Shown: in pieces, positions 865 to 64,000 of the stretch
How the letters are laid out: the number at the start of each line of letters is the position of its first letter
Numbering within the stretch: position 1 is the stretch's first letter
Assembly: GCA_963794945.1 (NCBI GenBank)
Contig: CAWCFT010000004.1
Location: 256,001 to 320,000, forward strand
DNA length: 64,000 nt
Direction: 5' to 3'
Source: Endomicrobiales bacterium
Lineage (GTDB): Bacteria > Elusimicrobiota > Endomicrobiia > Endomicrobiales > CAWCFT01
The notes under the pieces: generated by a model
Database searches by the model: none
Seen by the model: the letters and a program-made list of their open reading frames with translations, nothing else
What the model was told of the DNA's origin: nothing
Made by a program: the position numbers and the translations under genes

Positions 865-910
865 CATAACGTCATTGCCGTGATTTGTGATATGTAATTC
901 TTATCTAAAT

Positions 911-1568
911 ATGCCTTTAAAACAAAGAAACATGATTCCCTATAGCGACCCGAGAGTCTCCAAGATCGGGCATCCTGCGCCTCCCTGGCTGATCAACTAC
1001 GCAGATCTGATGACTGAGCTGGTCTGTTTTTTCATTATTCTATACGCCCTTAGCGCCGCTCTCAACAAGAACATGGTCAACGCCAAGGAAGAACTTGAAA
1101 AAATGATGAAGGACCAAAAAATGCAGGGTGAGGTCAAGATGACCAAGGAAGGCCTATACCTGACCCTCGAAGAGCAGAACGGGCACGGCCTATTTTGAAA
1201 GCGGAAAGGCTGACATAACCGAACAGGGCAAAAGTGTCCTTGCCAAGATCGCGCCTATACTTGAGAAAGTGCCCAATGACGTGGTAATAGAGGGTCACAC
1301 AAACAATATACCCATACACAATTCGCAGTTCGACACTAACTGGGAGCTTTCAACCGCTAGAGCAACGAACGTGGTGAAATATTTCGTCAACGTGGAGAAG
1401 CTCCCCCCATCAAGGCTCGCCGCTATAGGCTATGGCGAGTTCAAATCCATCGCCCCTAACGATTCCGTCGCAAACAGGAACAAGAACCGCCGAGTCGTTT
1501 TTTTCATCAAGAACGACAAACCTAAACCTGGCGGGACAACACCCTCTGAAACCGAAGCCGCCCCCTGA
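911..1568 (+). CDS. motB: MotB/PomB-family stator protein with OmpA-like peptidoglycan-binding domain; split by an apparent +1 frameshift near 1181-1183 (about 218 aa when corrected)
   Basis: 5' part has WLINYADLMT..CFFIILYA (conserved Asp TM). Removing one G from AACGGGCACG gives ...EEQNGTAYFESGKADIT...VVIEGHTNN...NWELSTARA.NVV...RLAAIGYGE..PN...NRNKNRRV. Start at ATG 911 is inferred. Confidence 0.88.
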
Positions 1569-1777: not shown

Positions 1778-2100
1778 CTAGTGTATTATACCTATCTTCC
1801 TTATAGCGGTCACAACACCCTGGTCGGATTTAACTTTTATCTGCGCTATGTATCCGCCTTTCGCGACCTTCATGCCGGACCCGTTAGAACCGTCCCACTG
1901 AACACGGTTCGCTCCCTTGCTTCCGCCTTGAGAGCCCGCGGCAAAAGTCCACGAATTGACCAGATAACCGAGCAGGTCGTAGAGCGTGATAGTCACTTCC
2001 GCGTCCTGGTTAAGAATATATACGATATTTGTCTTTGCCAGTTCTCCGCCTTTTCTTGTGTCAACAGGGTTCGGGAAGTTAGACACCGACGAAATAACCG
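1778..2100 (-). other. C-terminal FlgD-Ig-like / T9SS CTD-like sorting domain of the giant protein
   Basis: SNFPNP...TNIVYIL...EVTITLYDLLGYLV...GANRVQWDGSNGSGMKVAKGGYIAQIKV...KIGIIH-stop fits the PNP / IYD..G..V / WDG....G..V..G.Y / K-hydrophobic end pattern. Confidence 0.8.
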
Positions 2101-52700: not shown

Positions 52701-55700
52701 TAGTTTGATAACCGTTTGCAGGGAAAACAATAACACTCTGCGGCGACTGGCTCGGCGACGGCAGGTATGGCTGATAAATAAAAGTAACTGTATTTTGAAC
52801 AACTTCATAATTCCCCGCCTTATCCATGGCTCTTACAGCTACCTGGTAAGTATTTCCCTGCGACCATATCTGCTCCGCCCCAGGTCGCGTTAAAGGTCCA
52901 CGTGCCGCTGGAGTAACCGGAGAAACCTGTTACCGGCAGCCAGTGGGCATTGTCGGTCAACTGCCCGCTGTCCCAAAGGCCTCCTCCCTTGTACGTGTAC
53001 GGCGGTTGCGGGCTTATTTGAACGATATTAACAGTAACCGTGCTGATCACGGGGTTATAACCAAGAAGAGAATAATTTACCCCGCTCACAAGGTCGCTCA
53101 CAGTGCCCGATATGGTAGGCAGAGAGTTCGCCCATCCCGATTGCGAGCCGGCAGGAGGAATATTGGTTATTTGTGAAACCGGGTTATCAGGGTCGTACAC
53201 GATAATGGCGGAACTAAGGAGAATATAATTGGCACCTTGTTCGTAGTTGCCGGTATTAGGAGTATTGTTCCCGGGATAAGCGCTGTCCACGGCCATACTG
53301 CGGATCTCAAAAACTCCTCCGTGAGACCAATGCCCGCCGCCTCCGGCAAATGTTACCGAAGAAGCGTTCCACGTCCAGTTATCGTATGTCGGCGGGACTA
53401 AATTTGCCACTCCGCTGCCCGAATAGCTATTAGTCCAGCCGCCTGCGCCGCCGCCGGCGGTCTGGTCCCAGCAATAACCGCTGACCGGGTTCTTTACGTA
53501 CAGGTAGACCGCGTTCACGCCGCCGAAACTGGGTTCATACATATCATGAGCCGTTCCGTTGATGGCGCTGATATTATCAAAATACTGCTGTGAAACGTTT
53601 AGAGTCCCCGCGCTTTCCGTGATAGTGGTTATGGTTGACGAGGGAGCATCAACATCGTAAACAAAGTAGCTTTGATTTGCCAGAATTGTAGCAGCTGTCT
53701 CTTGATTTCCCACTGTGTCAACCGCTCTGGTTTTTAGGGTGTACTGAACATCCTGAAGCCAGTTTATGCTGCCGGGAACAGAATAGGCCCATACACAGTA
53801 GCTGCCCGATGGGACTGCTGTTGTGGAAAAATAGACGTTAAAAGTACCGGCGCCTCCAGAACTCGGTCACCCAGGCTGCTGCCGTTCCAGGCCTGGTTGC
53901 CGTTATAAGTCAATTCCATATCCACGTGGTCAACTTTGGTGGCGATAGGAGTAGCGGACGCCGTGCCTGCGATCATGGGTATCTGGCTGAAGAACTGTAA
54001 CAGGTTATTGGGCTGTGTTGCCTTAAATGACGTTGGCGGCTGAGTGGCGCAGGTAAATGTGTTCGATGTAACACCAACAGTCACAGTAGCCTGATAGTTT
54101 CCGGGGTATCCAAGGTGTCCCGGGTTTATAGCTGAGTCGCCGGCAATGGATGCGATAATATATTGATCGCCGCCGTTGAGCGGCGAGCAGGGAGGCACGC
54201 ATTGATATGTCCAGGAAGACGGCCAGATGGACGCGCTGTCCAAAGAATCAAAGCTTGCTGCCGGGCTCGTATTCCATTGGCCGCCGTAATAATACTTGCC
54301 CGAAGTAGTGTCCTGCAGGAAAATTTTCACGGCGCCGCTGGACTGCCATATTCCCGAGTTCGCGTCAAAATATTGACCGTAAAAAAGCGGCGCCTGGCCT
54401 GATATATCATTATTTTTGGGATAGGTTATGCTGGAAGTCGGCGGGACCACATCCCATATGAACGTTACAGTGCTGTAGATAACTTCCGAATTACTCGCGT
54501 TGTCCGTGGCCTGAGAATACACGGCGTACTGGCGGCCGGTAATAAACTGCGCTGAAGCATTGCTGACTGTTCCCACCCATGCCGCAGAATAGGTCTGCGG
54601 ATTGCTGAAACTTGATGTTGCGTTTGGAAATTCGCCGCTCTGGTCGAAAGAATTTGTGTTGCTCCACCACAGATTAGACGTCATGTCTTTCATGAACCAT
54701 TTTACGTGGTTTATTACGTCATTGGAATTGGACGTCGCGGTTCCTGTTATCTGCGTCAGGCTGCACATGTACGTGTTGTTTACGGGTGAAATAATTCCTG
54801 AATTGGGCCTCTGGGGGCTAACTTGAAAAGGTTCATAGACATAAGTTGCCGTAGAATATGCGCTTGAATAAACTCCGGTGCGGCCGCAGGCGCGCGCGAT
54901 TATCTGATAAACTTTATTAGCCGTCCATGTAGTAGTAGACAGGGGGAAAGACCAAGTATAAGTAACACCGGCATTTGTCGGCGTGCCGTTCCAGCCGATC
55001 AGCGTCCAGGCGTGAAGGCCGCTTGAGTCAGGCGTTCCGGTAGTTATGAAAACCGAGTCCGTAGTGTTCTGAATACTTATATATACGGCGGAAGACGCGC
55101 TGAGGCCGTAATTGTCGCTTGCAGTTCCCTGTATTGTTGGCGGAGTGGAAAGCCAGGTCTCGTTCGAAGTGACCGGCACGGTTATAGCTACCCGCCTGGC
55201 GTGCCGTCGCAGGTGAAAACGAAAGAACTTACGCCTACAACAACGTTCTCGTAGTTGCCGGGATACCCGATCCTCGCCTGATCAATTGCGGCGTCGCCGG
55301 CTATAGCTGCAAGCACATACTGGTCTCCGGGATTGAGCAAGCCCGTAAACTGGTAAGTCCATGACGATTGTGTCACTGGTATATAACCATTCTGCATTGT
55401 TACCGTTACCGGGCCTATTACCGCGCTGTCCAGGCCGTCATACGAATTGTTTGTAACAGAAGGAAGGTTATTGTGCCAAGCGCCTCCGTACCAGTATTGT
55501 CCCTGCTGCGCGCTGCCCTGCGTTATATCCTGCAGTAAAATCTTTACAGTACCGCTTGACGTGGGCCAGGTGCCCGGCCATATACCGGCTCCCACATCGC
55601 CGCAATTACCGTAGAATGTAGGCTGCCTGTCAGTATAGCTTGTGCCTACTCCTGCGTAAACAGGGAAGAAAATACTTGATGTGGGCTTTGCAACATCCCA

Positions 55701-58700
55701 TAAGAACGTTATGGTGTCATAATTTGTTTCAAAGTTGTTCCCGAAATCTTCGGCTTGTGTGTAAAGGGCATAGGTAGTGCCGGTAACCAGGCTGTTGTTT
55801 ATGGTAGAAACTATCACCGTCCACCCGGGTGCGTTATTGTTTAGAATACTTAGAGTACAGGTTGAGTTCAATACTTCCCCTGTGCCGCTGAACCCCCCCA
55901 AATGATTGCTGTATGTCCAATCCCACCACAGGTTCTGGTGAAGGTCTTTTATTGCGTACCTCACTTGCTGTATCTCGCAGTTGGTATCTTCAGCGGCCGT
56001 TCCTGTTATCGTATTTAAATTACAAACATAAACGCCCTTTGTGGGGCTGACAAAATTTGAATTCGGATACTGATACGTGCCTGTAACGTAGGGCTTGTCA
56101 TAAACGAACACTGCTGTCGAATACGTAGTTGAGAAAACCCCTGAGGCGTTGCAGGCCATCGCGACAGCCTGGAACTTGTGGTTCGCAGTCCAGGATGAGG
56201 CATTGATAGTGTAAGACCATGCAACACTTCCTGTTCCCGCGTTTGAAGGGGTCCCGCCCCATCCCATAAGTGTCCATGCGTGGTAGCCGCTTGCGTCTAT
56301 CGTACCGGTGGTGATAAACATGCCTGTGCCCAAATCCTGCACGCTTATATAAATGCCTGAAGATGAGCTCAATGCCCATGCATCGCTCGCTGTGCCCTGG
56401 ATGGTCATTGTTGCGTCATTGCGCCATGTAGTATTAGCGCCGGGAGTAGGCACTGTTATATTTATTGATGGAGTATTCCCGTCGCATATAAATGTAATGG
56501 AGCTGCCGTTTGCGCCAGTAGCCCATGAGTTCTGGTAATTTCCCGAAAGCTGATGCCCGTATGCGTCATTGCCGGACCTTGTTCGGTCAACGGCCGAGTC
56601 TCCGGCAATGGACATAAATATGTATGTGGCGCCCGGCGTTAGAGCGCCGGTATACTGGTATGTCCAAGATGAAACGGTTATATACATCCCGTTAGCGGCT
56701 GTTACGGATGTAGGTGGCCAGACAGTGGCGTTATCCAGCACATCGTAAGGATTATTTGTGGGCAGGCCGTTGTGCCAGGAACCGTTATACCAATACGTGT
56801 TGCCCTGGTTGAGGCTTTGGAGTAATATTTTGACAGTTCCGCTGGATTTCCATATACCCGCTCCGGTATCGTAGCAGTTTCCCGTAAACACTGGCCAACT
56901 GCTGGTATAAGTCGGGTTGCCGTTGTTGTAAACAGGGAAAGTTATAGTGGATGTTGGCGCGTTAACGACCCAAGTGAAAGTAAAAGTAGTGTAAGATTGC
57001 TGATAGTTGCCCGCGCTGTCGTTTGCCTGGGTATATATAGAGTAGCTGGTCCCGTTCGTAAGGTTGCTGTTTATGCTTGAAACCAGTATCTGCCAGCCTG
57101 GCTGGCTGCTCTGGCCGGATAGCGTGCAGGTATCATTCCACACCTCGCCGGTGTTGCCTATAAATGTGCCTACATGGCCGTTAGGGATCCAGTTCCACCA
57201 TAAACTGTCTTTGAGCCTTTTTAGAGCGTATTTTACGTCCGTGACGTATTCATTGCTGGGGCTATAAGACGTACCTGTTATTACAGCAAGGTTGCTTATG
57301 TAGGAGCTTGCTCCGGGGAACTGTGCCGCGATGACGGCTGATTGCGGAATATCACTGGGTTTTGAAGGAGAAATTTCGATTGTGCAGTAAGATGTTGTAT
57401 AAGCGCTTATATTACCGGCGGCGTCAACGGCCCGCGCTATCACGTTGTAGGCATGGTTGGTTGTAGAAAGCGTAACTGAATATGACCAGCTGACGCTTGT
57501 CCCGCCGTTAGTTGGAATGTTTGTCCAGGCGTGCAGCCCGCTTGTGTCCGGCGTTCCTGTAGTTACCCATACTCCTTGTGTGTTATCATACACGCTTACC
57601 TGTATTCCGGAAGAAGTGCTCAACCCGTAATTGTTCTGTGGCGCTGCCGGTTACGGTGAGAGTATAAGACGAGTATGCCACACCGGCCAACGGGGTAACA
57701 AGGTTTACAGTAGGCGCCGTTATATCTATTGTTATTGTTGAAGTTGAAAACAGCGAAACCAGCCCTGACTGGTCGACAGCCTCAGCTACAATAGTGAACG
57801 TTCCCTGCTCCCAGTTGATATTCTGTACTTGAGTGCTGTTGGAATTCCATCCAAACCAGTGGTTGTTGGTGTAAGTATTTGTGGGGTTCATCACCATCCA
57901 CGGGTTCGCGGGTACCGGGTACCATTTATTCTGGTTCTGGTCCCAGTAGCATGCCTGCCCATACCCGTTGAAGCTGTTGCCGGAGGTTTCAATAACCTTG
58001 ACCTGAACGCTGGCTATAGCCACCAGGTACGCGCCGCCCAACCCCTGTGCCGTTCCAGCCGTCATCGTTCGCGCTGCCTCCTACGGATATAGCAGTCGAT
58101 GTGCTCGCGAAAGTTGAGTTAGTCGCGGGTACGCTTATTGTAGCGGTCGGCGCGTAAACCATCCAGTAGAACGACGCCCCTGTCTGCAGAGTTTGCCAGT
58201 TTTGCGCCCTATCCTCCGCCTGTTCATCCATATAGTAGGTCTGCCGGTCAGTGAATGTTGACCCTCCAACTGTATAACTCCAACTTGAAGGGAACAAAGT
58301 ACTGTTAAACCACGCGTTAGAGGGGTTGACTGAATATGACCACTGCCAGTTGCCACTGTTGTTGTACCACCAGGAGGTATTCCCATTCAGGTCGGTTCTC
58401 TTTAATCTCACCTGCACCAGAGACACACCGCTGAAATCGGTCGAGTTTAACGTTGAGCTGTCAGAATAGGTTCCTGAAAAACTTGATATCGTGTTCGATT
58501 GGTTGTTATAAAATGAATTGGCCACCGGAAAGGTTATGGTGGATGTGGGGGCTACAACATCAAGGTCGAAACAAAAAGCGGAAGGCTCGTATTTTGTGGT
58601 GTTACCAAAACCGGTATAATTGGGGTTTACGTAGTCAGTTATAAGGCCGCCGCCCACATAATTTCCATATCCTCCGGTATTAACTATCTGCTGTGACCAG

Positions 58701-61700
58701 CTGTAGCCGGCGCCTCCCGCCCACTCAAAATCTTCAGTGTATCCCCTGTCGGTATTGGTCATAACTATTATCTTGTTAGAATACGGGTCGGGATAAGCCG
58801 CTACCCTGCTTGCCAGGCTGTTGCACCCCACGGAACTCGCGCTGGTACACTGGGTCCAACCCGCTCCTGGCGCGTAATACGCCCAGGCGAGGTTATAGGT
58901 ATTCGAAAACGCGGCGACCATGCTCGCGAACAAGCAAAGCCTTCCGCTCTGAGATTCCCATGCTATGTCCACGGGTGAACTCCACGGGGTATTGTAGTTC
59001 GTCTGGTTAACGTTGACCCCGCCAAACCAGTCAACTGTAAGGCCGCAGAACACCGTCATTCGCGGTAACGCCCCACGTGCCGGTGGCAAAGGTAACACCA
59101 GAAGAATAAGTAAAAGTGCTGAAAATATTCGTGTACATATGGCGCAGTGTCACGGTGTTCTGAGTGTTTATCGCCACCAGGCCTATCTGGCTTGTCATGG
59201 GATTTGCGGCAAGCCTTATTATGTCGAAATTGTCCGTTACGGTGCCTGACATTGTAGGCCCCGTATTGCCATATTGGCCCATGGTGCCGCCGTTCCCTAG
59301 GTTCCACACTGCGGCGGTACCGGTTGAAGACATCGTAGCGTATTGAAGTATGGATTGATAATTTGCCGTACCTCTTGTCCAGACCACAAGCGCGTTATAC
59401 GGCCATTGCTGCTGGAACTTAACGTCAAAGTTCTGGTAAGAAGTGAACTTATTCTGGCTTGAAGCAAGGTAATTGCCCGCTGAAATGCTTCCCTGAAGGG
59501 TCTGCAACGTATCAAAATCTTCATTTGACCCGTTCCATCTGGCCGCGTAAAGGTATGGCGGGTGGCTGGATGGGCCGTCAACAAATATAAAAACCGCATC
59601 GTTCGTGCCCGCGCGCGGGTCTCCGTCAGCCTTTATCCAGAGCGGAGCGCTATTGATCAGTGATATATTGGAGGGTGACGGGGTGGTTGTCCATGAACCG
59701 CCTGTGCCGTTAGGTGTCCATATAGCATAATAAGGAGTATTGGTGCTGTTGGAGAACACCACTATGGCCTTTCCCGTGGTTCTTTCAAAAGCAACATCCG
59801 CGCATTTAAAGTTGGCGTAGTCCGCGGTGTCGCTGAGGTAAAGGTTTCCAGCGAGAGTGATATAACTGCCGTTGATCCAGCCTGACCCGTTCCACACCTC
59901 GGCGCTTAGCACGCCTGTGCAGTCCATTGTAAGCATTACTTTTTGATTATAAACGGGGTTGGATTTAACTATAGTCCACCTGACGGCTTCGTTGTGCGGC
60001 TGAGACTGGCCGGATTGTATTTCATTGGTATTATTATTCGTGCCGTCATAAGTGCGTGTGTTTACCTGGTCGGTGAACTTGCCGTAACATAGAAGGTCAC
60101 CGCAAATACAGTACGGCTGGAACTCTGCCGAGGTAATGGAATAGGAAAGCGGGTAAGGTAGCCCCCATGGCGACCCGGCGCCTATGTTATAATTGATCCC
60201 GTACAACCTGTCTTCTCTGCGCGCGTTGCCTGAAGCATAACCGAAAAGGCTGCGTGTTACGCACGCAACCTCTACGTTCGAGTTCTGTGTATAGCAGATG
60301 CCTGGTATAGCGCTCGTTGATTGGACAACGACAGAATCGATATACTGCTGATTGCTGGGGTTGCCCTCCATGTTTTCATTTATCACGGTAGGGGTTGCCC
60401 ATGCGCTGCCGTTCCATATGGTAGAATAAAGCAGGCTCGCGTTATTCGCCGGCGCTCTGGTACAGTAAACCAATACGCAGGAACTGAAGCCAACTGTCCA
60501 CCCAATGTCGAAAGGCCTTCCGACAACGGCAAGATTGCTGACAGAATATAAGCTTACTGTCTGGGCGGCGCCAACGTAATCTATGCTATTATTAACAACG
60601 GTACCTCCTGCCGGGAAAGTCAGGTTGCCGGTACTTCCTCCGGAGGATATCCATACGCCCAAGTAATATCCACCGCTGTTAACTACCCCGATAGCTATCT
60701 GGTTGCCGTTCTCGTTATAGTTGGTGGTTGAAACAATAATACCAGTCCCCCATGAACAACTGTTCAGCGTCGCTGTGGCAGCTAAAGTTGAATACGAATT
60801 CAGGATCGCGCCGCTGCCGTCTATCATGTGCCAGCCGTACTTCAGGCCTGGGTCAGGGATTGTGCCGAATTTTCCGCTGCCGCTATTATATGCCGCAAGC
60901 AGCCCGGCGGTCGAAGGGAATGTGGATGAATAAACATGGAATTCCTCCATCATGCCTCCGAAGTAGCTTGGAGATGAGCCCGCTCTGTTGTTGGCGCCGA
61001 TATTTTTTATATCTCCCGCCCATGACGGCGCCAGGGCAAATTCGTTCGCCGCGGTAAGCGATACAGTATCAGGCGTGTAGTTATTAACGTAAAAATTGGC
61101 CGTTTGTGCCGCCGTGTCAACCATGACGGCTATAAAATACGTGGCATTTGCCGATAATGCGGGATTGTTAGTGCCCGGGTCGGTAAATGTATAGCTGAAT
61201 GTTGAAGAGATAGAGCCGTAGCTTGCCGTCAAATAGCCTGATGAGTTGATACCGAAGTATACTTTTGTGGTGTCAGGCGTGCCGCCACCTCCGCCTCCCA
61301 TAAAACCTGTAACCCAGCTGCAGTTATTCAAAGCCGCGGTGGAATAAGGCGTGGTATATGTTGCCGGGTTGCCTGTCCCGCCTGCCGCGACATCATTGAA
61401 GTGCCAGCCGTACTTCAGGCCCGGCTGGGTTGTGCCCCACCAGGCAGAACTGCTGTATTCCGCCATAATAGCCGCCACGGACGGGAACGTTGTGGAAAAC
61501 ACCTGGAACTCTTCTATGTTACCGGCAAAATAGTTTGGCGCTGCGACGGTATTCTGGGCTCCGATATTTTTCTGCATTGTCGCGGACGACGCGCCCATCG
61601 CGAACGAGTTAGCGGCTGTCATGGCTACCGCAGCGCTCGTATTATTGACATAAAACACTGCCTGCAGTGTTGACGTATCAACCATGACAGCGACAAAATA

Positions 61701-63227
61701 TGTGGTATTCGCTGATAACGCCACCTGGGTATCGCTTATGACATAGTAGGGGTAGCCTGTAGTGGAAGAACTGTAAAACATTTCCAGCTGGGAGCTCGGG
61801 TTTATATTGAACGACACCTTGGGGTTTCCGTATTTTTGGGAATCTTCATAGAAAATAGTGTTGGTCGCGCCGCCCACTGAAAAAGGGCAAACCCACGCGG
61901 ACATTCCCCAGCGGTACACTCCTGATGAAACAATGTTAGCGTAGGCGGACAGGTCGCCGTAAGAGCTGGACCCGTTGAAGTTTATGGCCGGCGGGGTTTT
62001 GTCTTCATAAAATATTGGCGCGTTGGAAACTGAAGTGGGGCATATCCACGCGGACATTCCCCAACGGTAGGAGTTGGACGAAACTATGTTCGCGTAAGAG
62101 GACAGGTCGGCGTAAGAACTAGAGCCGCTAAAATCAACGGCAGGGGTTTGCCAGAACCCAGCCCAGTTGGGCTGCGGGACGGCCTTCACATAAAGGCCAG
62201 ATCCTCCCGCGAAGCTGGTGGTCCCCATATTCTGCACAGCTGACCACGCCGATCCGGTCCATGTATAATACACCGGCAGCTTGCGCGCCGTTATTGCTTT
62301 GGAATAACCTTAGTACACCTGACTGCTGTTCATAAGCTATGTCAAAACAAATATATTGGCTGTTATTGGGGACAGTGCCGGGATAAAGGAAAGTGCTCCA
62401 AGTGTTGGCATTGGCGTTAAAAAAACTGGTGTAAATTCTTGGCTGAGTATCTACGACTGCCAGTACCATGTTAGTACAGCTTTGAAGAAGCGGGCTGCTC
62501 TCATCCTTAGATATCTGATAGTGTTGTTAGAGTTGTCTCCAAAGCTCTGCGGAGCGCCTGATGTGTCCACCCAACCCGGTGTATTGCCGTTGGTAGTGTT
62601 GCCGTTGTACCGCCAATACAGCAGGTTTGAGCTTCCTGTTGCCGGAGTGTTTGGGTTAAGGGCGACCACTACCGCCAGGTTTGACGAGTAAGCTATATCA
62701 AATGGCCGGTAGGTGCCTCTTACGTAGTCGCTGCCGGTGTTAAGGTCGCCGTCAGTCATTTGTGGGTTTGACTCTGACTGCCCGGTGCCGAGAAGCGTCT
62801 GTTCCGCTCCCCAGACGCCATTGGAATAGACCTGCGCGACAAGCCTGCCCTGGGTATCCAGGCAAACCATCACCTTTTCGCCGGCTCTTGAAGGGTCAAT
62901 GCTCGTTATCCATGAAGGGGCGACTTTCACAACCACCCACAAGAATGGGCCCTTCTGGTTTATTGTATCCTTGGCGGTGCCTTGCGCCGATTGTTCACCA
63001 CCCCAAGTCGTGCCGTTGGTGTTTATTTGCCTGAACGCCGGGGTATCTTCGCTGCCGGAGTAAACAAAAACACCCTGGGTAGTTCCGGCGTTCGCGTCTT
63101 TTAATTGAACATTAAACGAGATAGCAATAAGCAAAACCGCGCCAAGCAGGGAAATGGTTTTCAGCCATCCCTTTAAGAACGGTTTAAATGGTTTATTAAG
63201 ATGATAGGACCAGCGAGACGGTTCCAT
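1778..63227 (-). CDS. Giant multi-domain secreted surface protein (adhesin-like), about 20,400-20,500 aa; broken into >40 ORF pieces in this sequence
   Basis: One signal peptide at the 5' end and one sorting-type domain at the 3' end; no intergenic spacers seen in between. Consensus repeats continue across 1-bp indels: near 4775 (VNP/GGNVVHTVLP), 6925 (YIVY/RTADGA), 11385 (NAAS/AVRLQLLLPG), 11935 (NVL/TTNPN), 38260 (SAGT/NWAYNITYP). Confidence 0.82.
2110..2485 (-). other. Fibronectin type III-like domain
   Basis: APAAPTSV...YQVVWTP...SGVSLYEIQE...YYYRIRAQNNAGTWGPWS. Confidence 0.7.
3070..7890 (-). repeat. Class C protein repeats, 8 units of about 170-240 aa, with DxDxDG-like loops
   Basis: Recurring QG..N..M..L...W....V...G...D.D...VK(I/L)(W/Y).D..G....D..IS.G...YF..YDI...A..G..LG; loops DANGDGMFEGD, DLDGDGNF, DTDNSGTLSAGD, DGNNNSILD. 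Confidence 0.7.
4762..6934 (-). CDS. Giant-gene fragments (ORFs 4762-6333 and 6179-6934): class C repeats with inserted phage-tail-like modules
   Basis: Overlapping ORFs in different frames with a continuous repeat consensus. Confidence 0.65.
6915..11273 (-). CDS. Giant-gene fragment: last class B repeats, invasin-like Ig domains, first class C repeats
   Basis: 1452-aa ORF with YDGFGNP, QDQFGNP, QDAYSNP, QDFWSN and RDLYGN motifs (DxxGN/SN, invasin-type Ig pattern). Confidence 0.7.
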   Translation of the reverse strand: MNLVDQFYNVNSVAVQPNVNITSDDQYGTMPAMSSLVSGRNTFTLTLITAATSHIVTATNPGHTYLGDTSAQFTLAPSTPSQLQVLVPGETAVPGLPPYNGTGGKSGTPLVKVAGDPSGMQITVNLTDIYYNRITNIDMPSFGVNSWDSAATNGILAKTLNNQGTAIQIVNPQVASSTWTVTAFDTALVYSSNTSSNVRIWPAAVYYFTLNYATNPVVAGTGFDVLVKAYDQYRNFVSTGPSWDSYVAGSHYIQFLANNFPAPRTPTVPLNYYFVENDFGQHNFVKGIVMRKADDVTYPMQWFKCFDASYGGLYTSIASDRAGYASLSFITINPGSFYKISVSTDPANPSTPTGGMLVPAGSPSNPGNVSLAGQMVDPFNNGILSSGVTVYFNVADSSGNLASVQDTSGKIWVSTTTDANGSVGVYPSFYVYVSTHAGDYSRIWIGTFTAPGNVSSYIEPNYINISGRFITTGGDPYCFGFQNMPTNLTAGKQTPSIQVYRYDGFGNPTEQGQDQVTLFSESLSPNKAFYNSYDNPLSGNQLVIQPGDAFESFYYYDDMSSYPIGENDRPGAWILHAQGDLIEALGSLIVDPNVTTHLDFSNTQSTQVANTVYDNFGVTRALELQPQDQFGNPTISTTTSLFASLSTVRLQSPTTDYWGFSLSSGTAGGTSWSEVTQVEIATNTYFVNFYYKDTRASNTYVPPGSGPTLSAVTTDMNHYSGSQVEDIIAAPIYKIAFSTPTFVQTLTAGTTTGEVPFTLQTQDAYSNPSPIVTPDTGYSGVRLGLSSNSQGARQYYTDAYGWQNTTGTILITTGTTSSAFSFVDTITGGYVLSADVHVFSSRNWQMAQLGYNVQANVPYKLAFINPGRRLIAGTTIEYYPDYTSGVSTDTRFTVQLQDFWSNRSTVTAGALNINVLAASPPLQSGAQASSDNNTYYPVDPNQTPLNIATLTPGQAEASFYFKSNIVGTVPVTAWINGLQTGVQITTITPNTAQRFSFEHPYSISSPLPVLSYGPVTVQARDLYGNAACGDPINGNYYNGKVLFWNSGSTTTANMLIAGVSTNTFTFSQTPNTNQPVPGELITLQVMDTKQETIRLGATDYVNSNIYGYTSDQRDLSNSGDVVTVGIVMTPQDFAPESNNPAKQNIGIATSLYQGDGTTPSRPGPVPMIRMQLQINPVNALVLSSATWIALTVNKTYIAGTSLGYDSIAEVDLYRDANGDGMFEGDTVLGNYGSATDEFLSSGTFVDNTQNTCTLIIPLDAAHIQQITQSLQTYFICVRLTSTATKNATLQLTLPIGAVTPVGVAKLAVNNFPFSSFSSTVQTEPPSVYLAVKDIASWYDPDGVSGPLPLAQYPTIQQGNPATGMMKIGLWTPEYNAIWTGVDVIMTGTAGDNDVVSCMLYSDDGTGIFKFGGGSLPISPPSVFNTGIAHITLNTPALIAQATQYFYIVYQNG
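10670..22370 (-). repeat. Class B protein repeats, about 33-35 units of about 110-120 aa (predicted beta-sandwich)
   Basis: Consensus A.KLQVLLPGET..PG...GK.GTP..QTAG.PF.VTV..(C/V)D.YWN.V.....V.LTTTDPY...P....L..GT..F...L.TA....ITA. Nine units counted in ORF 11922-14951; total extrapolated from length. Confidence 0.85.
11922..14951 (-). CDS. Giant-gene fragment, class B repeats
   Basis: 1009-aa ORF of tandem class B units, frameshifted at both ends. Confidence 0.7.
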   Translation of the reverse strand: MLLPNQTPVSNTIYGRTGIPNTQTAGVQFPVTVNCTDPFWNVNPNANPLVSLRSNDTYDIEPATASLTAGTGVFQMTQFTANTSHLLTAIDADASPLYASNVSSTFTVTAAAPYQVHLIVPGQSFVPGKPPYDGTGGKSGTPQNQVAGTPFYITVMGTDQYYNLRNDMSGLVSISDTDLYGPAVTNKPLAGGETTFYMQLVTYSSQTIIASYSGVAPSTSSIVYVQPGAPNQLLILAPGEVAQPGNHTSRGRTVATPSGQTAGVPFNVTVDACDFYYNPTTATPNVTVTTIDPYASQPAPASLINGTTTFALDLVTLGVCSASATATSYNYDYTGNINVKSGNLARMQILLPGETGVPGKFNVQPFGKTGTVTAQTAGVSFNVTVNLVDSWWNLTSSTLIVTMTDISDPNDVNNNTSYGVSGTSITIPWYFNTANGYRQLTGQSTGLPIAYSSYVWVNAGSAIKLITLVPGETYNPGSATGKSGSPTNRIAGLPFQTTVYGCDALWNRVPGETSLVQLVTSDNYDDVATGGSQTATLDATGTSIFTNTLFTATTQTITATGLQNPVTNPYLGHPMTQYTSTQFTVVSSDAVKLQVLLPGENYDPGRPPYTSSGGGGKNSTASVQTAGVPFNVTARAVDPYWNTVSANVSQVHIYTQDPYDVEPATAPLVGGVCAFVVDMITNSTWTISAVDTAGILTTCVSSPVYVNYNIPTKLQVILPGETAVPGYANGKTGSVLQQIADDAFNVTVNLTDNYWNRVIVTTAMPSVTLGSTDLYWSTPTARTLVSGTVVFSGAYAADLVTAATQTITASGGGYVTGVSSPVCVNPNAPTQLIVIVPGETQVNGRNIVPVGRGGTPVTQQVGQSFVVTAYAVDRVFNLTPSVNDTISFVTSDPYDLDPGNILMTGGVATATCQLHTAQPTTVSGADAGLNLPENLGGPYNSSVINVIPGVAKKLQVLVPGETALPGFGKTGSPGSVYAGTSFTSTINVCDDYWNLTSTSPIINVLDNKP
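20002..24399 (-). CDS. Giant-gene fragment spanning the class A to class B transition
   Basis: 1465-aa ORF holds both repeat types in one frame, so the two arrays belong to one polypeptide. Confidence 0.75.
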   Translation of the reverse strand: MMRPATLKSRFIQNFAAGSIWRCDQIVPTIANVLPAPSLIDPPNQFYNAVSLPIISGTANESYPLSQVQIRVWDGVASRYWKSSINNWDDFSPSPLTANTAWFSYPAMNASSTWSVWQATFTVWTSGYKYEVDSRVQDAAGNYSTVNSTSIFRYDTTPPQSYVFLPQNGQYISSLTNISGTSLDLPITVGQSGPSGLTIMQIAIMNLQTGKWWSSTAFDQGTISPLTPTGLSNWTYNGLGSNSLQSGTSYFITSRAWDAAGNIENWYSVRGATFTFDNIGPVSQILNPQNNGAYTSLSTISGTSWDATSGVNSVNISLQDLSGGTSKYWTDNGLGSVGWQTNINQYWITISSVAPGGVTVNWQYFQPLLNSNLNDGHYYQVMAQGFDNINNPQAIISSSTFIYDITKPTACVTEAIMPVSGQVVTPMANQYIQNIQYIGGTAADNGCAVNNSGLQASGVQYVIILESTSYETGSPVPLYDYVWNGSTWTVLPSADISPYWLTATGGTNWDSQDMTNKWYSGRWYIVKARATDKAGNVQDDTLEPWTSFSVSLPAQSFLVSLVNTQNPNAGDPVSVQVEAVDQNGDPARNYQGDIRFSVDGPITSPGGPEYVYTAGDTQGWLPNDYQFTTLDQGVKIFNINYSSRTLKLVKDGSRTIFVTDINNNSVSGQKVVSVNTTAPTELRVLSPGVSRAPGVVGGITGGPQTRTAGISFNATVDACDNYWNVVPSTSTTVKLTTTDQYATPAQISKNLTDSSGLPQGTTVYAVTLVTRGNWSLTAQDMAGPLTQSTLANVPVQSAAANRLLMLVPGEAGVYGKPPYTSQVGGKNTTVTAQQVAGVPFTVTVSACDYYWNKVDTYAGNIAAVTSDNFSIVPSTQVLTNGTTTFNITLVTSATSYVSASVYQGTALSSATSDGIYVGPTTAAKLQLLVPGETACPGKANQPETNLFGTSQTWGKLNTPSQMTVGTSYYVTVNLVDRFYNVVSTVTMPVAKITTSDPNETSGNNYFSYLPPEAQLVGGTKTFPVTMVTAGNRTVNVIDDGGTGYLGDTSPGITLNPSTITQLRLLVDGEHAAPGTFTGKDSGTPNQQTAGVAFASVEIDACDNYWNTNTIGSRQIALLTTDPYAASWGFIPGPVGLINGTKNFANTVKLTTLGSWNLTAIDNEGPVVWSSQTVAGINVVQNTPTQLQLVLPGETIEGGSVNGKLVTPSPQQAGSPFTVTVCLTDAYWNKVLLSAPTVQLTLTDQYGRVNNQQVSTPVQEQLIAGQNTLNVTLYNATTQYITVNDVDGSNYTSTQTVTFPVSPRNPSKLLVLNPGETYVPAKYNVAPYGKSGTVTNQTAGVPFVVTVYSCDAYWNISSTNVYCWLGTQDSNDPYATFSPSTATLVNVSTFTVTLMRAQGTFIMTNHNTDSSLADYIFNTNSNAPITVQTGTASKFQVLVPNETAVPGSSTGKSGASLFSRPRAMIL
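24796..27960 (-). CDS. Giant-gene fragment, class A Ig-like repeats
   Basis: 1054-aa ORF of class A units. Confidence 0.7.
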   Translation of the reverse strand: MVSLIWVLSQNSYWTGSAWGSPGQVYFRPVNGTTTWTYPKGPDTITNAFINGATYQIAPWEIDGAGNASTGTITTFVYDNVAPTSTITLPLNSVYYRNLPNISGTAFDDTSGVNITGIYIYDNTLGEYYGWTGSAWDFSASIGENNKWLVTQGTPTNWQYSGYASKMQDGHSYTIVSKSTDNAFPQNVETVYSVGKNTVTFVYDIDFPTATVTLPNVQFASIVPLISGTANDTLSGIGSVQIAIQDIGQGTTWYNGAGGWVSQGTQYWIQATTAAGNPPTWSYDATSVPWAEPKQYTIYARAKDNAVDATIANNPNVQVILSSTSVMFDVEAPTVAVTYPNYGGSNLINFIPVITGTAYDWPAGVANQNVFVAILETNHGECWWNPASSTFNYKGASPVYSTATVSGSGPTYTWSWQCPPLQNGYQYMVQAIATDRAGNQENPATIIPANRLYFTYENTAPMAGITLPNRAWENSLPTISGTASDPYGIASVKVAYEQNPPGGLWWDGNSGFTSNSPQFFTAQGTTLWTHSQSNSPNSPTWVNNTQYLVRAFAYNVALTSSAYTEATFSYDNITPTSTVTYPAQGSYLSSIARISGNQYDTYSGVQNVNLRLQEKNVGSGTVLRSWYGSQGWQNTNVSSWVVVDALYQSTWSYTTAVASLTFTSGNRYDATSLAWNVAGSSEAASDVPAFDTWFIYDNTNPDSRVSVPSNSLYYSNLTNITGTAEDNPPEPSGAGVAQEALAIEDLSVAGPNNWWNGAGAFTAPPASMWQVATGSTSWAYSFVNTNFTDGHRYLMLSQATDKSYPAMVENTYTVGVNSVTFVCDKSSPTSTVAYPPNGLITNTVPVISGTSVDPLVSGNASGIQMTQIAIQNNTSGLWWNGAGFTQSQSTPNFITVSYQLTPANTYWNYTNAGLVNALATQTTYTIFSCAYDNAYNNASLIGNYQTNYSSTSFVYTITNPTSNIVGISAAMNALSTISGTAVDNFGISNVGVLIQDVTQGTTYWNGTSWQNTVPVSWPKSTLGNRVLDIRFNTQLGRCPSILSLVAGQRYCRQR
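27986..31612 (-). CDS. Giant-gene fragment, class A Ig-like repeats
   Basis: 1208-aa ORF; the first ~75 aa are off-frame, then class A units follow. Confidence 0.7.
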   Translation of the reverse strand: MERNRLATERFYLDNHAEPDSWRHVVVLQFRQCVQLGFRANLLHELFSGKHSPERRNQFFNNNFPDRYAASATRLNVPQGGVIYRSLPQITGTATDDFTGVKDVQVQIQNLNTGNYWKGGSWASGTGTDWFDYTGGNPVTYAGAIISTWTYGNPPTLFTQTESGYNFMVLSRGIDNAINTGQTFSVGVTSIAFAYDVTAPTSTVNYPVNAGNYSALLTISGTANDVAPFANAVMSGVGSVKISINDIASGTTYWNDTSRSWTNSTFWNSTVYNSSTWTFTFSNPSLLPWQTGKQYLIRSKAIDQAVPGGNDQDTQYPQGGYVITYDTNPPLVQIGAPQNNGFYGPASSALVAITGTAVDLPALPLICADINNIQLQIYNGSKYWSGSSWVVQSTWVPTQYSAGFWQYPGSLGGQAIPVWQDQTQYSITAQAMDNAGNNSSPLAYTITYDSTPPVSVISYPSTRYTNVNIATISGTTTDPNPINSKPNQTFLSLQLQGGSWWSWGAQSFSLSNASWTVVNGGNSSQSGWTQSWNLPSWQTDNTYVIYSSATDRAGNQQVVVSSFVFSYDITKPTATVTTPASFGYYSTMAAIAGTTFDATSGVQTARINIKSGTSYWNGSSGWDITGAIDWLVVSGTANWNYTNVPSWVSGTTYYITPWTLDFAGNDSTGNVMGFVFDNTAPASYISPLPVNGRYYSSLPTISGTSIDPLGTGGSASGVNKTQVSIYSWSKNAYWDGLGSFGNASQTPLPTFGTATNWQYSIGSSYLVDGTSYTVQSQATDNAQPANVESIYTAGQNQNLFIYDVSNPTSVVTCPLDGSNDISLATISGTQMDIAPAAGRLASGVGQVMVSIQDLTYPTTYWNGSSWQNSAEYFNPTNVYQSSWTYSSVPAWQTGRRYKIRSRAYDNAYPTPNDQYNSYPQGGYTILFDTIPPTVSVVQPQNQGYYGPNNTLPTLSGQVQDYPSLPWAKSGVKNVVVNIQQVGGNWWNGTSFGVSTTTWRATQLQGSADPYTWLYPGNTGDNTPTWADNTQYTVTAAALDNAGNFSMLVISTFTWDRTAPTSLIQLPSRTYYKSGSLSVLSGTASDGANVNRSGLLNVGVAIQQNPAGGGNWWSWGAQSFSLSAASYTLTNAGTLANWQQTWNLPPWNNFDGQTFKVCAMAEDNALNFQTPVSSSAFTYDISNPTGVVTLPAPGITYYSSLQNNFRYGI
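32681..37396 (-). CDS. Giant-gene fragment, class A Ig-like repeats
   Basis: 1571-aa ORF, in the same frame as 37415-38227 across one TGA. Confidence 0.7.
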   Translation of the reverse strand: MIQPVAQDARSTALATVTGTATDGTGVGVGYVELRIQRSDGNWYDWGGGWTGNAGSWQPTTYGSGQWTQNVSALPWTEGFAYYINSRAQDLVQVPGPNYEASFTTHTYIFDYTAPIAQTIIPGNISWQGALPFISGTANDPTTVAGGVPSDVKKVELSIQRLSDNLYWDGSTGFNQPGIIWSTATLTSIAFSSYSWTYNNINNNYWINNTSYTVGIKATDNVGNVAWGTTNYFVFDTTPPVCGVVVPNGVLPSYPQVNLMPMISGTASDYGLGQISSVQIQIKNVDDSNFWNPGSPGSWGGATWINTTFNQATGVWTFSTTSPAVTWKPYLSASYEIKARAIDMAGNICAVMPVGSFMLVPPRPQSAITTVTNGSFYKQITSLGGTASQAGSGIAQTMIEYVRIQRQSNGLYYTQFSTNTTNYWVAQSTWMVASITLPDWTYDLTTTQFVHDSSYTVSVCAESNESILEWNPPPWGTDTTPSAPNSLVTFWIDNQPPVLGVGVPATVYTNSLPVITGTCQDIPSGPNNISVSIQRADNYYWSVAGSSWTITQVWNSTTSFSGGIWQLAISTNPWRDGTSYTLQVRAYDNVIPTPNSTLLPGQGFIYDISCPTATLTYPAQNSIMSSVSSISGGCSDTPPGQLQNVQILIQRCDGNDWRYWKDLVSDQGWKLSPVWNNVTSFTASSWTWTTPGTLQLENNATYYVTVSALDMAGNQQTSFAVGISSYYFRTDLQPPAVTVTFPTNNLNFSPSGSFNFTGNITDNLAGGTTVNLQLSKLDTGVTYYWTGAAWSVNVSSFNAEELGTGSLNRIWSEPFNNWASDKQYTIKARGYDAALPVANLGDFNSGNIFTFVIDTTPPNSYISAPQNNSMIPALSAITGTAIGDLAGIQSVSVSIQRIAGTYSDGNYWNNEISNWVSISTWCPTIVPQGTGPQTWSYTVPAGLLINGNKYQIISRALDRALNYDVVLSTITFLYDQSAPVTVITVPSGIYYGPQSALNTISGTAADYPISPSLNSGLSQVFLRIQRSGDNYYWNNNAWVANSSTWSVVSGTSSWTYNGLAWDDGRIYNLNSCAVDFAGNLSAWTTSTFRWDSTSPLTGIVSPAGNWVSNLPYVSGTAYDAPSLYGNKSGLQQVSVAFQQFDSQQWFEPGQGFNQGTTYWITASNYVAEDSTVTWTVPNSSTPTWANGKTYTMLVMATDMSNNQSVINSTVFTFDQTLPTIAITMPNQTAESTLPIISGTASDVVGSNPGSINYVQMRVYDESLTEWYSRVDDKFEIAANAPETAWYLATNTSTWTVWYSTFTQWVPGRYYDIDARVLDQAGNWCAVYSTKTFLCDTLPPTVVVTKPAAGQYWSALGTISGTAQDMPFPGNYSGTGFIKIAVRSNTTGLWFDGGGFNLGTPPTNFSVGSGDGPWGYYNSTLGGLLQSGASYYITNQASDIAGNTDNWYNVGGSTFVYDNTPPNAQITIPNSSGGFYSSLATISGTAADVVPAPSRPLVSGVKTVQFTVQDVTAGVPQQNLYWQNPGGGWSTSSPSTWTALTAEQFRGLVFYKCHQCPVDAGTQLCCDRVGDG
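38229..43448 (-). CDS. Giant-gene fragment, class A Ig-like repeats (longest intact piece)
   Basis: 1739-aa ORF of class A units. Confidence 0.72.
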   Translation of the reverse strand: MASSSWSASQTWNTSALSGGNWQIVLLSTCAAVAWSNNQSYLIQSRAMDNALPSGNMEGLGSGNAGVNVTYDITPPTSSIVSPINNTAYNSLNTITGTVQDLAGLRTEIQIFDLGGQSASLGYYNGAGDWQSTAIWLSTENASGFTMTPTNWNYVPNPVISWKSGNKYLVVSRSRDAAGNLQNQFAAGTSSNTFVFDTQPPVSALTVPSSNITKTLADISGTSSDATQANYAGISAVAARINITVQDLTYPNTYWQGAAWGVGVSTFHPSGINAIAGPAVSWYRTGVGWISDRQYSISYWAQDDLGNTSNVSSYSVIYDTTPPTSGIIYPANLTKFNYAPTISGTANAFLSGLAEVDVQISSWTGAGWYTVTSWSPSSVSITGSTWTYSGFGTLNSGTTYQVQARALDLAGNYDTILSTVDFIYSTQAPQTGIGVPVSGGFYGPANTLTSITGTATDPFGVSTVYLQIQRSGDNKYWDGNTSWVAGSSWIVTTYSINWSYSNLNLQDGYIYTLNSKALDLAGNLSGWTTTTFTYDSTLPQVVLQQPTTSYLNSLPVISGTAFEPAGTVSTNRSGLSKVEVAIEYNPDGNGNWWNPGTHNFDIGNANSAWFNVTGNLAGVNGPVTWSVPSASTPTWVSNTKYLVKARATDRSQNISTGTVTSQSFVYDTGGSAVQITVPSLSSYPSLPTISGTASDSNSLDSVSSVFIRIYNFTVTQYWSNSNQSFTVSNANNAWFTPTNASGNWNVWVETFTWSSGNEYQIEAVAQDNSGNFSVTYSTVVFRYDNQPPNTFVTQPANGTFIRSLATISGTAGDIPPAATGTGYGGTGLSQIEVAIRDNSNQSGTPWWGGASFNQPSPQPFLYTGAKSPEPVTWTYTGLTGANLVSGTSYYATACSLDNATNQESFLIRGSTFVYDTTPAVSSITVPSSAYYSVLNTISGTAQDYPGYANGLAAGVQSVSVAICRMSDGAQWQGSGDTWSGTTYYMPTSGTNNWTLSTLPPWASGQKYRITSQSVDNALPSGNVETNGSMRYFIFDSSAPGTAIVSPIAGGYYGQLNAITGTAQDYPTAPFNSGLNSAAVRILRVSDSYEWTGSSWTSPGANWWNPASLISGNWQYTSVPQWQSGFEYTVQSMATDNIGNAQNPVTSSSFWFDNAPPNSFVTLPTENEGFNLQNPLNTISGTAYAPASGVQNVNISIRLDNPPLDSVNAGVEDQWWSVAGSSWAYGNEASYTYPVTIYNRVGETAYWYYSGISSSSYVSGNIYRIHTKAEDYVQYPGPNYETPASTRSFTVNNIPPTSNITYPVNEQYYTSLGTISGTAVAASPTSSGVTETDIQIYSANYGYWNGSNWQVSPSTWIITTSLAQANTSWQFTQVPTWISGQWYELNSRSIDSANNVENAALKSWVTVGIDTAPPNVVIITPQNNQPYMSLPVITGTALSDLSGVKNVSLVIEDLFTGQTWNKPIFQSGINWTNDVVGTTTWECTDSIPYTSGKQYLVYAKGQDNAGNITSVYTVGVNSNTFVYDREPAQTNLVMPAAGNPTYNSITTISGTSTDITAQPAGFVSGVKEEHILISYLSGGATYYWTGGNPYSQYWSSSSYPTNGLVVATSGGWSYTNSQFANSSAWTTGITYTIQAWSVDNAGNIENPPITRNFQFDNVDPTIGITMPNPGATSAYNNLAQIAGTAADAYCAVTKVELTIQDVTSGTTYYNGSSWVNNPGALWFNSGSAGTKLGLQYHLSY
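43483..53713 (-). CDS. Heavily frameshifted giant-gene segment, class A Ig-like repeats
   Basis: About a dozen overlapping ORFs (e.g. 43643-44623, 44541-46202, 48873-51335, 51510-52244, 52820-53713), each carrying parts of the ISGTA / DxAGN consensus. Confidence 0.65.
53764..58065 (-). CDS. Giant-gene fragments containing a triplicated three-domain Ig unit
   Basis: ORFs 53764-55179, 55188-57623 and 57586-58065; TTGT(P/I)D.SG.HAWT occurs three times. Confidence 0.68.
58570..63085 (-). other. N-terminal head of the giant protein: beta-propeller-like repeats
   Basis: Recurring strand motifs RPFDIAYSS, CFDIAYEQQSG, RPFDIGW, CADVAFERTTG, NFDVKFQQQ, VDIAWESQSG, alternating with W..VK..P...K.M...D..G.L.A.VW.G..W. 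Confidence 0.55.
60736..62141 (-). other. Two LamG/concanavalin A-like lectin-fold domains, one nested in the other
   Basis: A(V/I)xFxGSSSY, W.MSAW.CP, YF(V/I)AVMVD, FYVNN, KNIGA, YF.G..EEF.V(F/Y)S and GLKYGWH..D each occur twice. Confidence 0.75.
63086..63227 (-). other. Putative Sec signal peptide of the giant protein
   Basis: Basic n-region KPFKPFLKGWLK, hydrophobic ISLLGAVLLIAISF, AxA-type site ANA before GTTQ. Exact start codon uncertain; no clear RBS. Confidence 0.65.
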
Positions 63228-63351: not shown

Positions 63352-64000
63352 CTATTTACCTTTTTTCTGCTTTGTCTGTGTCAAGTTCGTTTGTGTCACG
63401 GCCTGTCCCGAATTGGCTTCGTTCTTAACGGCAGGGTCAGTGTCGTTTTTATATTTTGCAAGCGCGCTGGTTGCGAAGGGAGTGTTTATCTTCCTTAGTG
63501 ACCGCGCGGCAATAATACGCAGCGACCTGTGCACGCTTTTGTTAGACAGCACGTTATCAGCCATTGCCACAGAAGCTGAACTGATGTGCAGGCCTAAAGA
63601 CTGCAGGGCGAATTTTTGGACGCGTATGTCTTTATCCTGCGACAAGGCAATGTTTAATGCGGGCAGTGATTCTGTATCCGTTCTGAAGCCGAGGCTCTTT
63701 ACGGCCGCCATACGCACGTAGGGGTTAGAGTCGCGCGCGGCTTCAACGAGCGCCGGAGCTGTTGACGTTGACGGGTTAACCGCGAGAATCTCTATGACCT
63801 GGATCCTCATGTAATCGTCTTTGGACGTTTTAACGAATCCGATGAGCGCTTGCGCTGCATCCTCAGTCTGCATCCTCGCGATATCTCGTACGGCGCCTGC
63901 GACGGCCGCACGCGAAGGGCTGTTCAAACGGGAAACAGCGTCGCTTAAAGTAATTACCGGAGCCGTAGTTCCGGCATTAGCAGATGTGGCTCCCGATACG
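63352..64000 (-). CDS. HEAT-repeat (HEAT_2/PBS-lyase-like) protein, 5' end beyond the window
   Basis: Helical repeats DDYMRIQVIEILA, DSNPYVRMAAVKSLG, DKDIRVQKFALQSLG, LRIIAARSL, DTDPAVKNEA. The frame stays open to base 64000 (VSGATSANAGTTAPVITLSDAVSRLNSP). Confidence 0.8.
   Translation of the reverse strand, partial: VSGATSANAGTTAPVITLSDAVSRLNSPSRAAVAGAVRDIARMQTEDAAQALIGFVKTSKDDYMRIQVIEILAVNPSTSTAPALVEAARDSNPYVRMAAVKSLGFRTDTESLPALNIALSQDKDIRVQKFALQSLGLHISSASVAMADNVLSNKSVHRSLRIIAARSLRKINTPFATSALAKYKNDTDPAVKNEANSGQAVTQTNLTQTKQKKGK

Follow-up and report, generated by a model that had tools for sequence, protein, structure and literature searches.

Does the DNA considered here carry one exceptionally large gene whose frame has been broken many times, or a cluster of smaller genes for related proteins? 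And if the gene is one, did the breaks arise in the assembly or in the organism? The stretch, called the window below, has 64,000 nucleotides (G000:C4:256001-320000) and is part of the genome G000 of an uncultivated member of the Endomicrobiales, which was assembled from a metagenome, amounts to 2.9 Mb in 19 contigs and is 85.9% complete. An earlier sequence-only reading had proposed a single gene of ~61.4 kb and ~20,500 codons hidden by frameshifts. With a probability of about 0.72, we hold that the locus is a single gene for a cell-surface fibre protein of ~20,480 residues, and that its ~45-50 breaks are mostly indels of the assembly and mostly not real mutations. The gene and its neighbours are given below, where G011 denotes a second genome, of the same order and another family.

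63352..63999, minus strand: upstream HEAT-repeat gene, its synteny with G011 conserved
1778..63227, minus strand: the whole giant gene, 61,450 bases and ~20,480 codons with at least 45 breaks, collinear with the G011 ortholog from the start to the C-terminal domain
887..1568, plus strand: motB-like gene in two frames, downstream of motA (73-864)

The first frame of the giant gene opens with an ATG at window position 63227 and the last closes with a stop at 1778-1780, exactly the ends that had been proposed. The window has 41 open reading frames of at least 150 aa, of which 37 are minus-strand frames within 1778-63227. Viewed from stop to stop, the locus is a chain of 43 pieces that overlap or abut while their frames change. 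The minimum number of breaks was taken from a shortest-path read-through, leading from the ATG at 63227 to the final stop at 1778-1780. This path requires at least 45 events, namely 21 one-base skips, 17 one-base additions and 7 read-throughs of stops. By the evidence of profiles and orthologs, several of the 7 "stops" consist of two frameshifts each, either opposite or successive, and therefore the true number of breaks is ~50. The longest open reading frame in the deposited sequence has 1,739 aa, and no frame of 10,000 aa or more is uninterrupted, since at least 45 breaks are needed to read the gene through.

It had also been claimed that every long frame of the locus carries the same repeat families. 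This stands for most of the chain: by BLASTP at E <= 1e-5, 37 of the 43 pieces match other pieces, and 3 more short pieces are caught by the repeat HMMs. It does not stand for the two ends, where the N-terminal three pieces (~first 4.6 kb) contain none of the repeats and the last three pieces (~5.2 kb) match one another only, with 1-2 matches each. The base composition of the giant gene differs from that of the whole genome, with a G+C content of 51% vs 46.5% and 4.5 vs 14.8 A/T runs of at least 4 per kb; a protein rich in Thr, Ser, Gly, Ala and Asn, or a foreign origin, may lie behind the difference. Rfam gave no match within the window.

Evidence that the pieces belong together is provided by the repeat units themselves. 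A match of a repeat HMM ends at a frame change, and the next frame takes it up from the neighbouring profile position. For instance, a match to profile positions 1-32 continues with 32-119 across a frame change, one to 1-74 with 81-120, and one to 1-47 with 52-100, after which a new unit begins. Since the profile register is kept across the frame changes, the breaks fall inside domains. The suggestion that the consensus continues after a one-base shift was found to be right at many junctions, by the profile register as well as by the orthologs.

The junctions are also read through in relatives. In G011 the same HEAT-repeat gene precedes a syntenic ortholog, which spans 53,743 bases and is collinear with the window's gene over its whole length, leader and C-terminal domain included, with 34-56% identity. 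The ortholog has ~10 breaks, mostly at positions other than those in the window. Single G011 frames bridge 17 of the window's junctions and leave gaps of no more than 27 bases in G011; conversely, 3 of the G011 breaks are bridged by window frames. In the Endomicrobiales MAG L043, an unbroken frame of 2,589 aa that runs to the contig end bridges the last 3 junctions of the window, and in the uncultured Elusimicrobia MAG L045 an unbroken frame of 4,275 aa, likewise running to the contig end, bridges the last 5. At the other terminus, an intact N-terminal homolog of 482 aa from an Endomicrobiales MAG (P0003) reads through the first two junctions. A few junctions, e.g. near window 59030-59150, are backed by collinearity with gaps only.

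Several assemblies of Endomicrobiales and Elusimicrobia contain relatives that share these C-terminal 1,000 residues; a search limited to proteins of at most 5,000 aa gave eight, with 2,025-4,388 aa. When a piece of the repeat array called family A below, lying between junctions, was used for a search of near homologs, the window's own gene call was the sole match. The last 190 residues of the family are also present, at 77% identity, on a contig of 3,343 bases binned as "Candidatus Omnitrophota" (L044, JBDRDG010000120.1). This identity exceeds that of the Endomicrobiales relatives, and the contig may reflect a binning error or a transfer.

Alternatively, the locus could be a cluster of many separately translated genes for related repeat proteins. 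Each piece indeed holds an ATG, GTG or TTG start, and the breaks are spaced about as closely as ordinary gene boundaries, which a crude count for this genome puts at ~65 per 100 kb. However, a cluster does not account for frame changes that lie inside domain units which then resume in register, for junctions that relatives read in one frame, or for break positions that are mostly not conserved between the window and G011. Separate secreted proteins would also be expected to show leaders of their own, and a hydrophobicity scan gave no credible internal leader in the giant gene. One hydrophobic segment is a credible leader; a second strong one falls where overlapping pieces are read out of frame, and a third, which is marginal, belongs to a repeat unit. 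The C-terminal sorting-type domain is present in one copy, so that the single signal peptide and single sorting-type domain of the sequence-only reading were both recovered. Judged from sequence, a multi-gene cluster is effectively excluded and keeps a barely perceptible share of the probability. The proposal of one gene at 63227-1778 is supported by the domain register, the collinearity with G011, the unbroken frames of L043 and L045 and the bridging by P0003.

What, then, are the breaks? As a control for assembly errors, nine long housekeeping families were searched and six genes were found, the sixth (probably leuS) as secondary matches. Of these, secA and valS are each split over two frames, uvrA has a middle part that is read in other frames, and leuS, if rightly identified, is split too, which leaves dnaE and ileS as the intact ones. 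The genes rpoB, rpoC and gyrA were not found in this 85.9% complete genome. A further split gene is located in the window itself, where the plus-strand motB-like gene has its N-terminal membrane segment at 887-1198 and its OmpA-like C-terminal domain, in another frame, at 1269-1568.

Independent sequences were compared as well. Among public runs there was one listed with the window's sequence, the soil metagenome X1, with 5% of the sampled words, 7 of 30 bins covered and contigs at a depth of ~2; no RNA run was listed. Seven of eight X1 pieces match the window at >=95%. The one break that is clearly covered by this independent run, at the same depth of ~2 and possibly in another strain, is the following.

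15564: an extra base, absent from the X1 contig; its removal joins two frames in the middle of a unit of repeat family B, in register

A contig of 6,086 bases in ENA is 100% identical to the head region of the gene over 683 aa, and it is broken where the window is open. The breaks also favour certain sequences. Among 17 finely located breaks, 7 occur at runs of at least four G or C, vs 1.42 expected, and 0 of 5,000 random placements reached 7. No excess at A/T runs was seen at the finely located breaks.

Other origins of the breaks were considered and rejected. Tandem Repeats Finder reported nothing at a score of 100 or more, and a blastn self-comparison gave 3 weak matches. The repeats are old and diverged, with 24-41% protein identity and hardly any self-similarity of the DNA, and therefore repeat collapse, or misassembly of that kind, is not involved. 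An altered genetic code was dismissed as well: the stops that end the frames are a mixture of TAA, TAG and TGA, and most breaks are frame changes. The genome-wide count of overlapping frames on the same strand was tried as a measure of error and proved uninformative, as ordinary gene boundaries are equally dense.

From these comparisons, the ~45-50 breaks appear to be mostly single-base indel errors of an error-prone, probably long-read, metagenome assembly. Such an effect has a precedent, and West-Roberts et al. 2023 (10.1101/2023.11.21.568195) describe single-base indels in long-read assemblies as throwing giant genes out of frame. The passage on nucleotide tandem repeats in an Omnitrophota preprint (10.64898/2026.06.07.730766), in its accessible text, adds nothing on frameshifts.

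Not everything is explained by error alone. The giant gene has one break per ~1.4 kb, vs ~5-8 breaks in ~17 kb for the six housekeeping genes, and an open reading frame of 20.2 kb on contig C1 has zero breaks. The density of G/C runs, 3.86 vs 2.97 runs per kb, is not supported as the cause of the difference from this unbroken 20-kb frame. In addition, the breaks are crowded in one segment.

14901..20101, minus strand: break-dense stretch of 5.2 kb at the start of the family B array, with 13 of the minimum 45 breaks (~17 by profile register)

The homologous stretch of G011 (G011:C4 ~148200-154950) contains 5 of the ~10 breaks of that ortholog. A search for the cause of the crowding found no DNA repeat, motif excess or composition feature in the stretch. 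Between X1 and the window there are 4 substitutions and 1 indel in 330 bases inside 14901-20101, vs none in 819 bases elsewhere. A break-dense stretch shared by the two assemblies is not what uniform random error would produce; poor local consensus, strain mixture or some real decay are possible explanations. Real frameshift mutations favour homopolymers too. On account of the excess in break density and the break-dense stretch, we give an inactivation that is real, in part or as a whole, roughly one chance in four.

The whole form of such an inactivation would be a recently inactivated pseudogene, in which the locus was once one giant gene and most of the breaks are true mutations in the population. 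A break density ~2-3 times that of the housekeeping genes tested, next to an unbroken 20-kb frame on C1, speaks for it, as does the position of the break-dense stretch, which the window and the G011 ortholog have in common. Two stops that resemble point substitutions point the same way.

37415-37417, minus strand: in-frame TGA between two family A units; Trp is aligned in G011
17844-17846, minus strand: in-frame TAG inside a family B unit; Ala/Thr is aligned in G011

Nevertheless, these two are the only clear in-frame stops among ~45-50 lesions, and nonsense changes are thus few in comparison with indels. Between the breaks lie open frames of up to 1,764 codons, whose domain similarity is preserved at the profile level. 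Essential genes are broken likewise in the same assembly, independent reads lack the one break that they clearly cover, and another assembly of the same sequence is broken at other positions. We consider a pseudogene unlikely. A mixture, in which most breaks are errors and a few are real lesions, is improbable to nearly the same degree, perhaps slightly less so. Candidates for the real lesions are the two in-frame stops or a variable or decaying segment at 14901-20101. The mixture draws on the crowding of breaks in one homologous segment, seen in two assemblies, and on the X1 contigs, which diverge from the window solely inside this segment; yet the X1 difference at the break restores the frame, a poor local consensus fits as well as a strain difference, and the segment bears no compositional or repeat mark. 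The reading that we prefer remains an essentially intact gene with breaks that are mostly errors of assembly.

Taken as one gene, the locus would encode a protein with the following parts, in order from the N-terminus.

63084..63227, minus strand: N-terminal leader with a basic stretch, a hydrophobic segment of ~15 residues and an Ala-x-Ala-type site, a pattern that recurs in P0003
58571..63083, minus strand: non-repeat head of ~1,500 residues with three breaks and no self-matches
59100..60482, minus strand: predicted beta-propeller within the head, residues ~610-1070 of a 1,092-aa piece, confident from ~730
22786..58570, minus strand: family A array, ~102 Ig-like units of ~117 residues
10662..22356, minus strand: family B array, ~33 units of ~116 residues
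2111..10661, minus strand: C-terminal region outside families A and B, ~2,850 residues of beta-rich modules with an internal repeat of ~300 residues
1781..2110, minus strand: C-terminal sorting-type beta-sandwich, the last ~110 residues

By its sequence pattern the leader may be either a signal peptide or a signal anchor. A conserved Tyr-x-Leu-Asn-Lys/Asn-x-Phe-Lys-Pro-Phe before the hydrophobic segment is common to the leader and P0003. Extended leaders are present in other very large secreted proteins, to which this long one may be comparable.

Searches of Pfam and NCBIfam gave no match to the head region at E <= 0.01. Its neighbours in a protein language model carry LamG-type and BNR/sialidase-type families, which serve as a lead only. 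An AlphaFold2 model of the 1,092-aa head piece, built on a 41-row alignment, has a pLDDT of 70-95 over residues ~730-1070 and below 50 for residues 1-608. With Foldseek the propeller matches sialidase and lectin propellers at E ~1e-7. In VIA-align the bacterial lectins BP39L, PLL and CV39L rank first with Z 19.8, 19.3 and 18.9, and generic propellers of the WD40 type reach Z 17-18.8. Since the generic propellers score almost as high as the lectins, only the fold is established. The head is confidently predicted to contain a seven-blade-type beta-propeller. That the protein might act as a tether with a binding head, as the sequence-only reading suggested, is plausible. Sequence searches of the PDB with the head, a family B-rich piece and a C-terminal piece returned 0, 1 and 2 rows at E 0.0059 or weaker, and nothing useful.

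The stalk is made of two families of diverged units. The HMM of family A has 120 positions and 108 domain matches; 73 whole units were aligned and are 24-40% identical to the first. Unit by unit, the resemblance to known families is weak: six Ig-like Pfam families match 11 (Big_13), 9 (Big_7), 4, 2, 1 and 1 of the 73 units at E 1e-5 to 0.1. At the level of whole open reading frames, Big_13 (41.1 bits) and Big_3_3 (35.9 bits) pass the gathering cut-off, 27 for both, once each. Units of family B begin with a conserved Pro-Gly-Glu and have the core Ala-Gly...Asp-x-Tyr-Trp-Asn. The HMM of this family has 116 positions and 44 matches, with 22 whole units aligned. The model of a family B unit, with a pLDDT of 92.8, is all-beta and shows a seven-strand beta-sandwich. 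Foldseek relates it weakly, with E 1.4e-3 at best, to Ig V domains and to an MG domain of macroglobulin. An earlier estimate of 140-150 tandem beta-sandwich units comes close to the ~102 family A and ~33 family B units counted here, to which the last ~2,960 residues add more beta-rich modules.

The C-terminal region outside families A and B is 42-56% identical to G011 and 44-57% to L043. Apart from the terminal domain, it matches no Pfam family at E <= 0.01, and a C-terminal piece has no usable neighbour in the Protein Atlas (score 0.80). The terminal domain itself scores 25.5 bits with FlgD_ig (cut-off 27), 17 bits with TIGR04183 (cut-off 23) and 27.6 bits with the C-terminal region of PorU. 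A relative from Elusimicrobia, 26% identical, bears the NCBI name "T9SS type A sorting domain-containing protein".

In G000, 30 open reading frames terminate in this sorting-type domain, 29 besides the giant gene, at most 12 residues from the stop. A match to a PorV-like barrel lies within 1.2 kb downstream of 11 of these 30 tagged frames. The genome thereby displays a cassette in which a tagged frame is followed, ~0.1-0.8 kb on, by a gene for a PorV-like outer-membrane barrel, and 13 of the 16 PorV-like matches are found at such sites (for example C3:91583-94182, C6:16586-19198, C15:173300-174576 and C1:40064-41046). The best PorV-like match in the genome has 65 bits vs a cut-off of 250. A weak SprA-like frame of 1,767 aa is located at C5:39154-44418, with 58.6 bits vs a cut-off of 200. 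In the 85.9% complete genome PorU has no full-length match, and only the C-terminal region of its model matches tagged frames. GldL and GldM were likewise not found there, and the control search for each of them matched no genome. No PorV-like gene was found behind the giant gene, which is followed by motA and motB on the other strand.

These parts suggest how the protein might work. In order, it would have a Sec-type leader, a head of ~1,500 residues with the beta-propeller, ~135 diverged Ig-like units of two families, ~2,850 residues of beta-rich modules and the C-terminal tag. Export would proceed by Sec, and the C-terminal beta-sandwich, apparently the genome's common tag of secreted proteins, would take the protein across or onto the outer membrane. 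The C-terminus would then be held at the cell and the propeller region near the N-terminus would stand at the far end of the stalk, where, as the architecture suggests, it could bind a glycan or another surface. At the textbook figure of ~4 nm per unit, the modelled stalk could extend several hundred nm, roughly half a micrometre.

A bolder proposal is that the Endomicrobiales possess a sorting pathway of their own, either a very divergent relative of the T9SS or an independent system, built on the C-terminal tag and dedicated PorV-like barrels, whose genes would often directly follow that of the cargo. It would export and anchor a 2.2-MDa fibre of half a micrometre whose lectin-like tip attaches to a partner or polysaccharide, and the break-dense segment shared with G011 would be a truly variable part of the stalk. 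We regard this full proposal as speculative and unlikely to hold in all its parts.

Annotation of the deposited sequence would list ~40 unrelated hypothetical proteins, where a single gene would encode one of the largest bacterial proteins, of ~2.2 MDa. A gene of ~54-61 kb is conserved in two families of the Endomicrobiales, which argues that it is used. The protein offers a concrete object for the study of surface fibres, by cryo-ET and proteomics, in an uncultivated lineage of soil and peat. The locus is also a warning that indels systematically hide giant genes in long-read MAGs. Other very long frames, of 6,744, 5,091, 4,387 and 4,083 aa, are present in G000, at C1:211479-231713 (minus strand) and on other contigs. 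Runs of adjacent long frames, e.g. C4:333225-363007 and C6:153200-175773, may be more broken giant genes.

The case does not open a new category, as both giant genes in Elusimicrobiota and their breakage by long-read indels are already published. In its available text, West-Roberts et al. 2023 (10.1101/2023.11.21.568195) state that proteins of at least 10,000 aa were frequently detected in Elusimicrobiota and that none above 30,000 aa occurred outside Omnitrophota, and a figure legend refers to length rings of up to 25-30,000 aa for phyla of the PVC group including Elusimicrobiota. The sequence-only reading had called bacterial proteins over 10,000 aa rare, and for this phylum that view has to be tempered. 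The giant genes of that work share with ours the setting at the level of the phylum and the class of size, and no description of this protein or family was seen in the accessible parts of the paper. The giant proteins of Omnitrophota, as far as the available accounts describe them, are built differently. Those of the "Archaeovorin" type have many transmembrane segments, whereas the giant gene here has one credible hydrophobic segment. Those of the "dockerin" type carry EF-hand/dockerin, thrombospondin type 3 and discoidin repeats, whereas a Pfam scan of 17 gene pieces at E <= 0.01 found none of these.

Three kinds of known surface protein can be set beside the predicted fibre. In fibrillar adhesins, tandem Ig-like domains form a stalk that is anchored to the cell and carries a binding domain at its tip. 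The giant protein resembles them in its long Ig-like array, its distinct non-repeat end and the envelope sorting element at the other end. It differs from most of them in its ~135 stalk units, several-fold more than usual, and in a head whose binding is putative. Cargo of the T9SS is exemplified by SprB of Flavobacterium johnsoniae, a large gliding adhesin with a C-terminal sorting domain and a neighbouring gene for a barrel of the PorP/SprF type. The likeness lies in a C-terminal beta-sandwich of ~100 residues, borne by 30 open reading frames, with a PorV-like barrel gene behind 11 of them. Unlike T9SS cargo, however, the domain stays below the cut-off of TIGR04183, PorU, GldL and GldM were not found in this genome, and the giant gene is without a barrel gene downstream.

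Giants of type I secretion, such as the ~1.5-MDa ice-binding adhesin of Marinomonas primoryensis and proteins of the SiiE/LapA type, have C-terminal RTX/T1SS signals and no N-terminal leader. The protein described here departs from them in having an N-terminal leader and a beta-sandwich as its C-terminal domain, and no RTX family was detected by Pfam at E <= 0.01. Its general plan is nevertheless like theirs: a single chain of megadalton size, made mostly of tandem Ig-like units and thought to act as a long surface tether.
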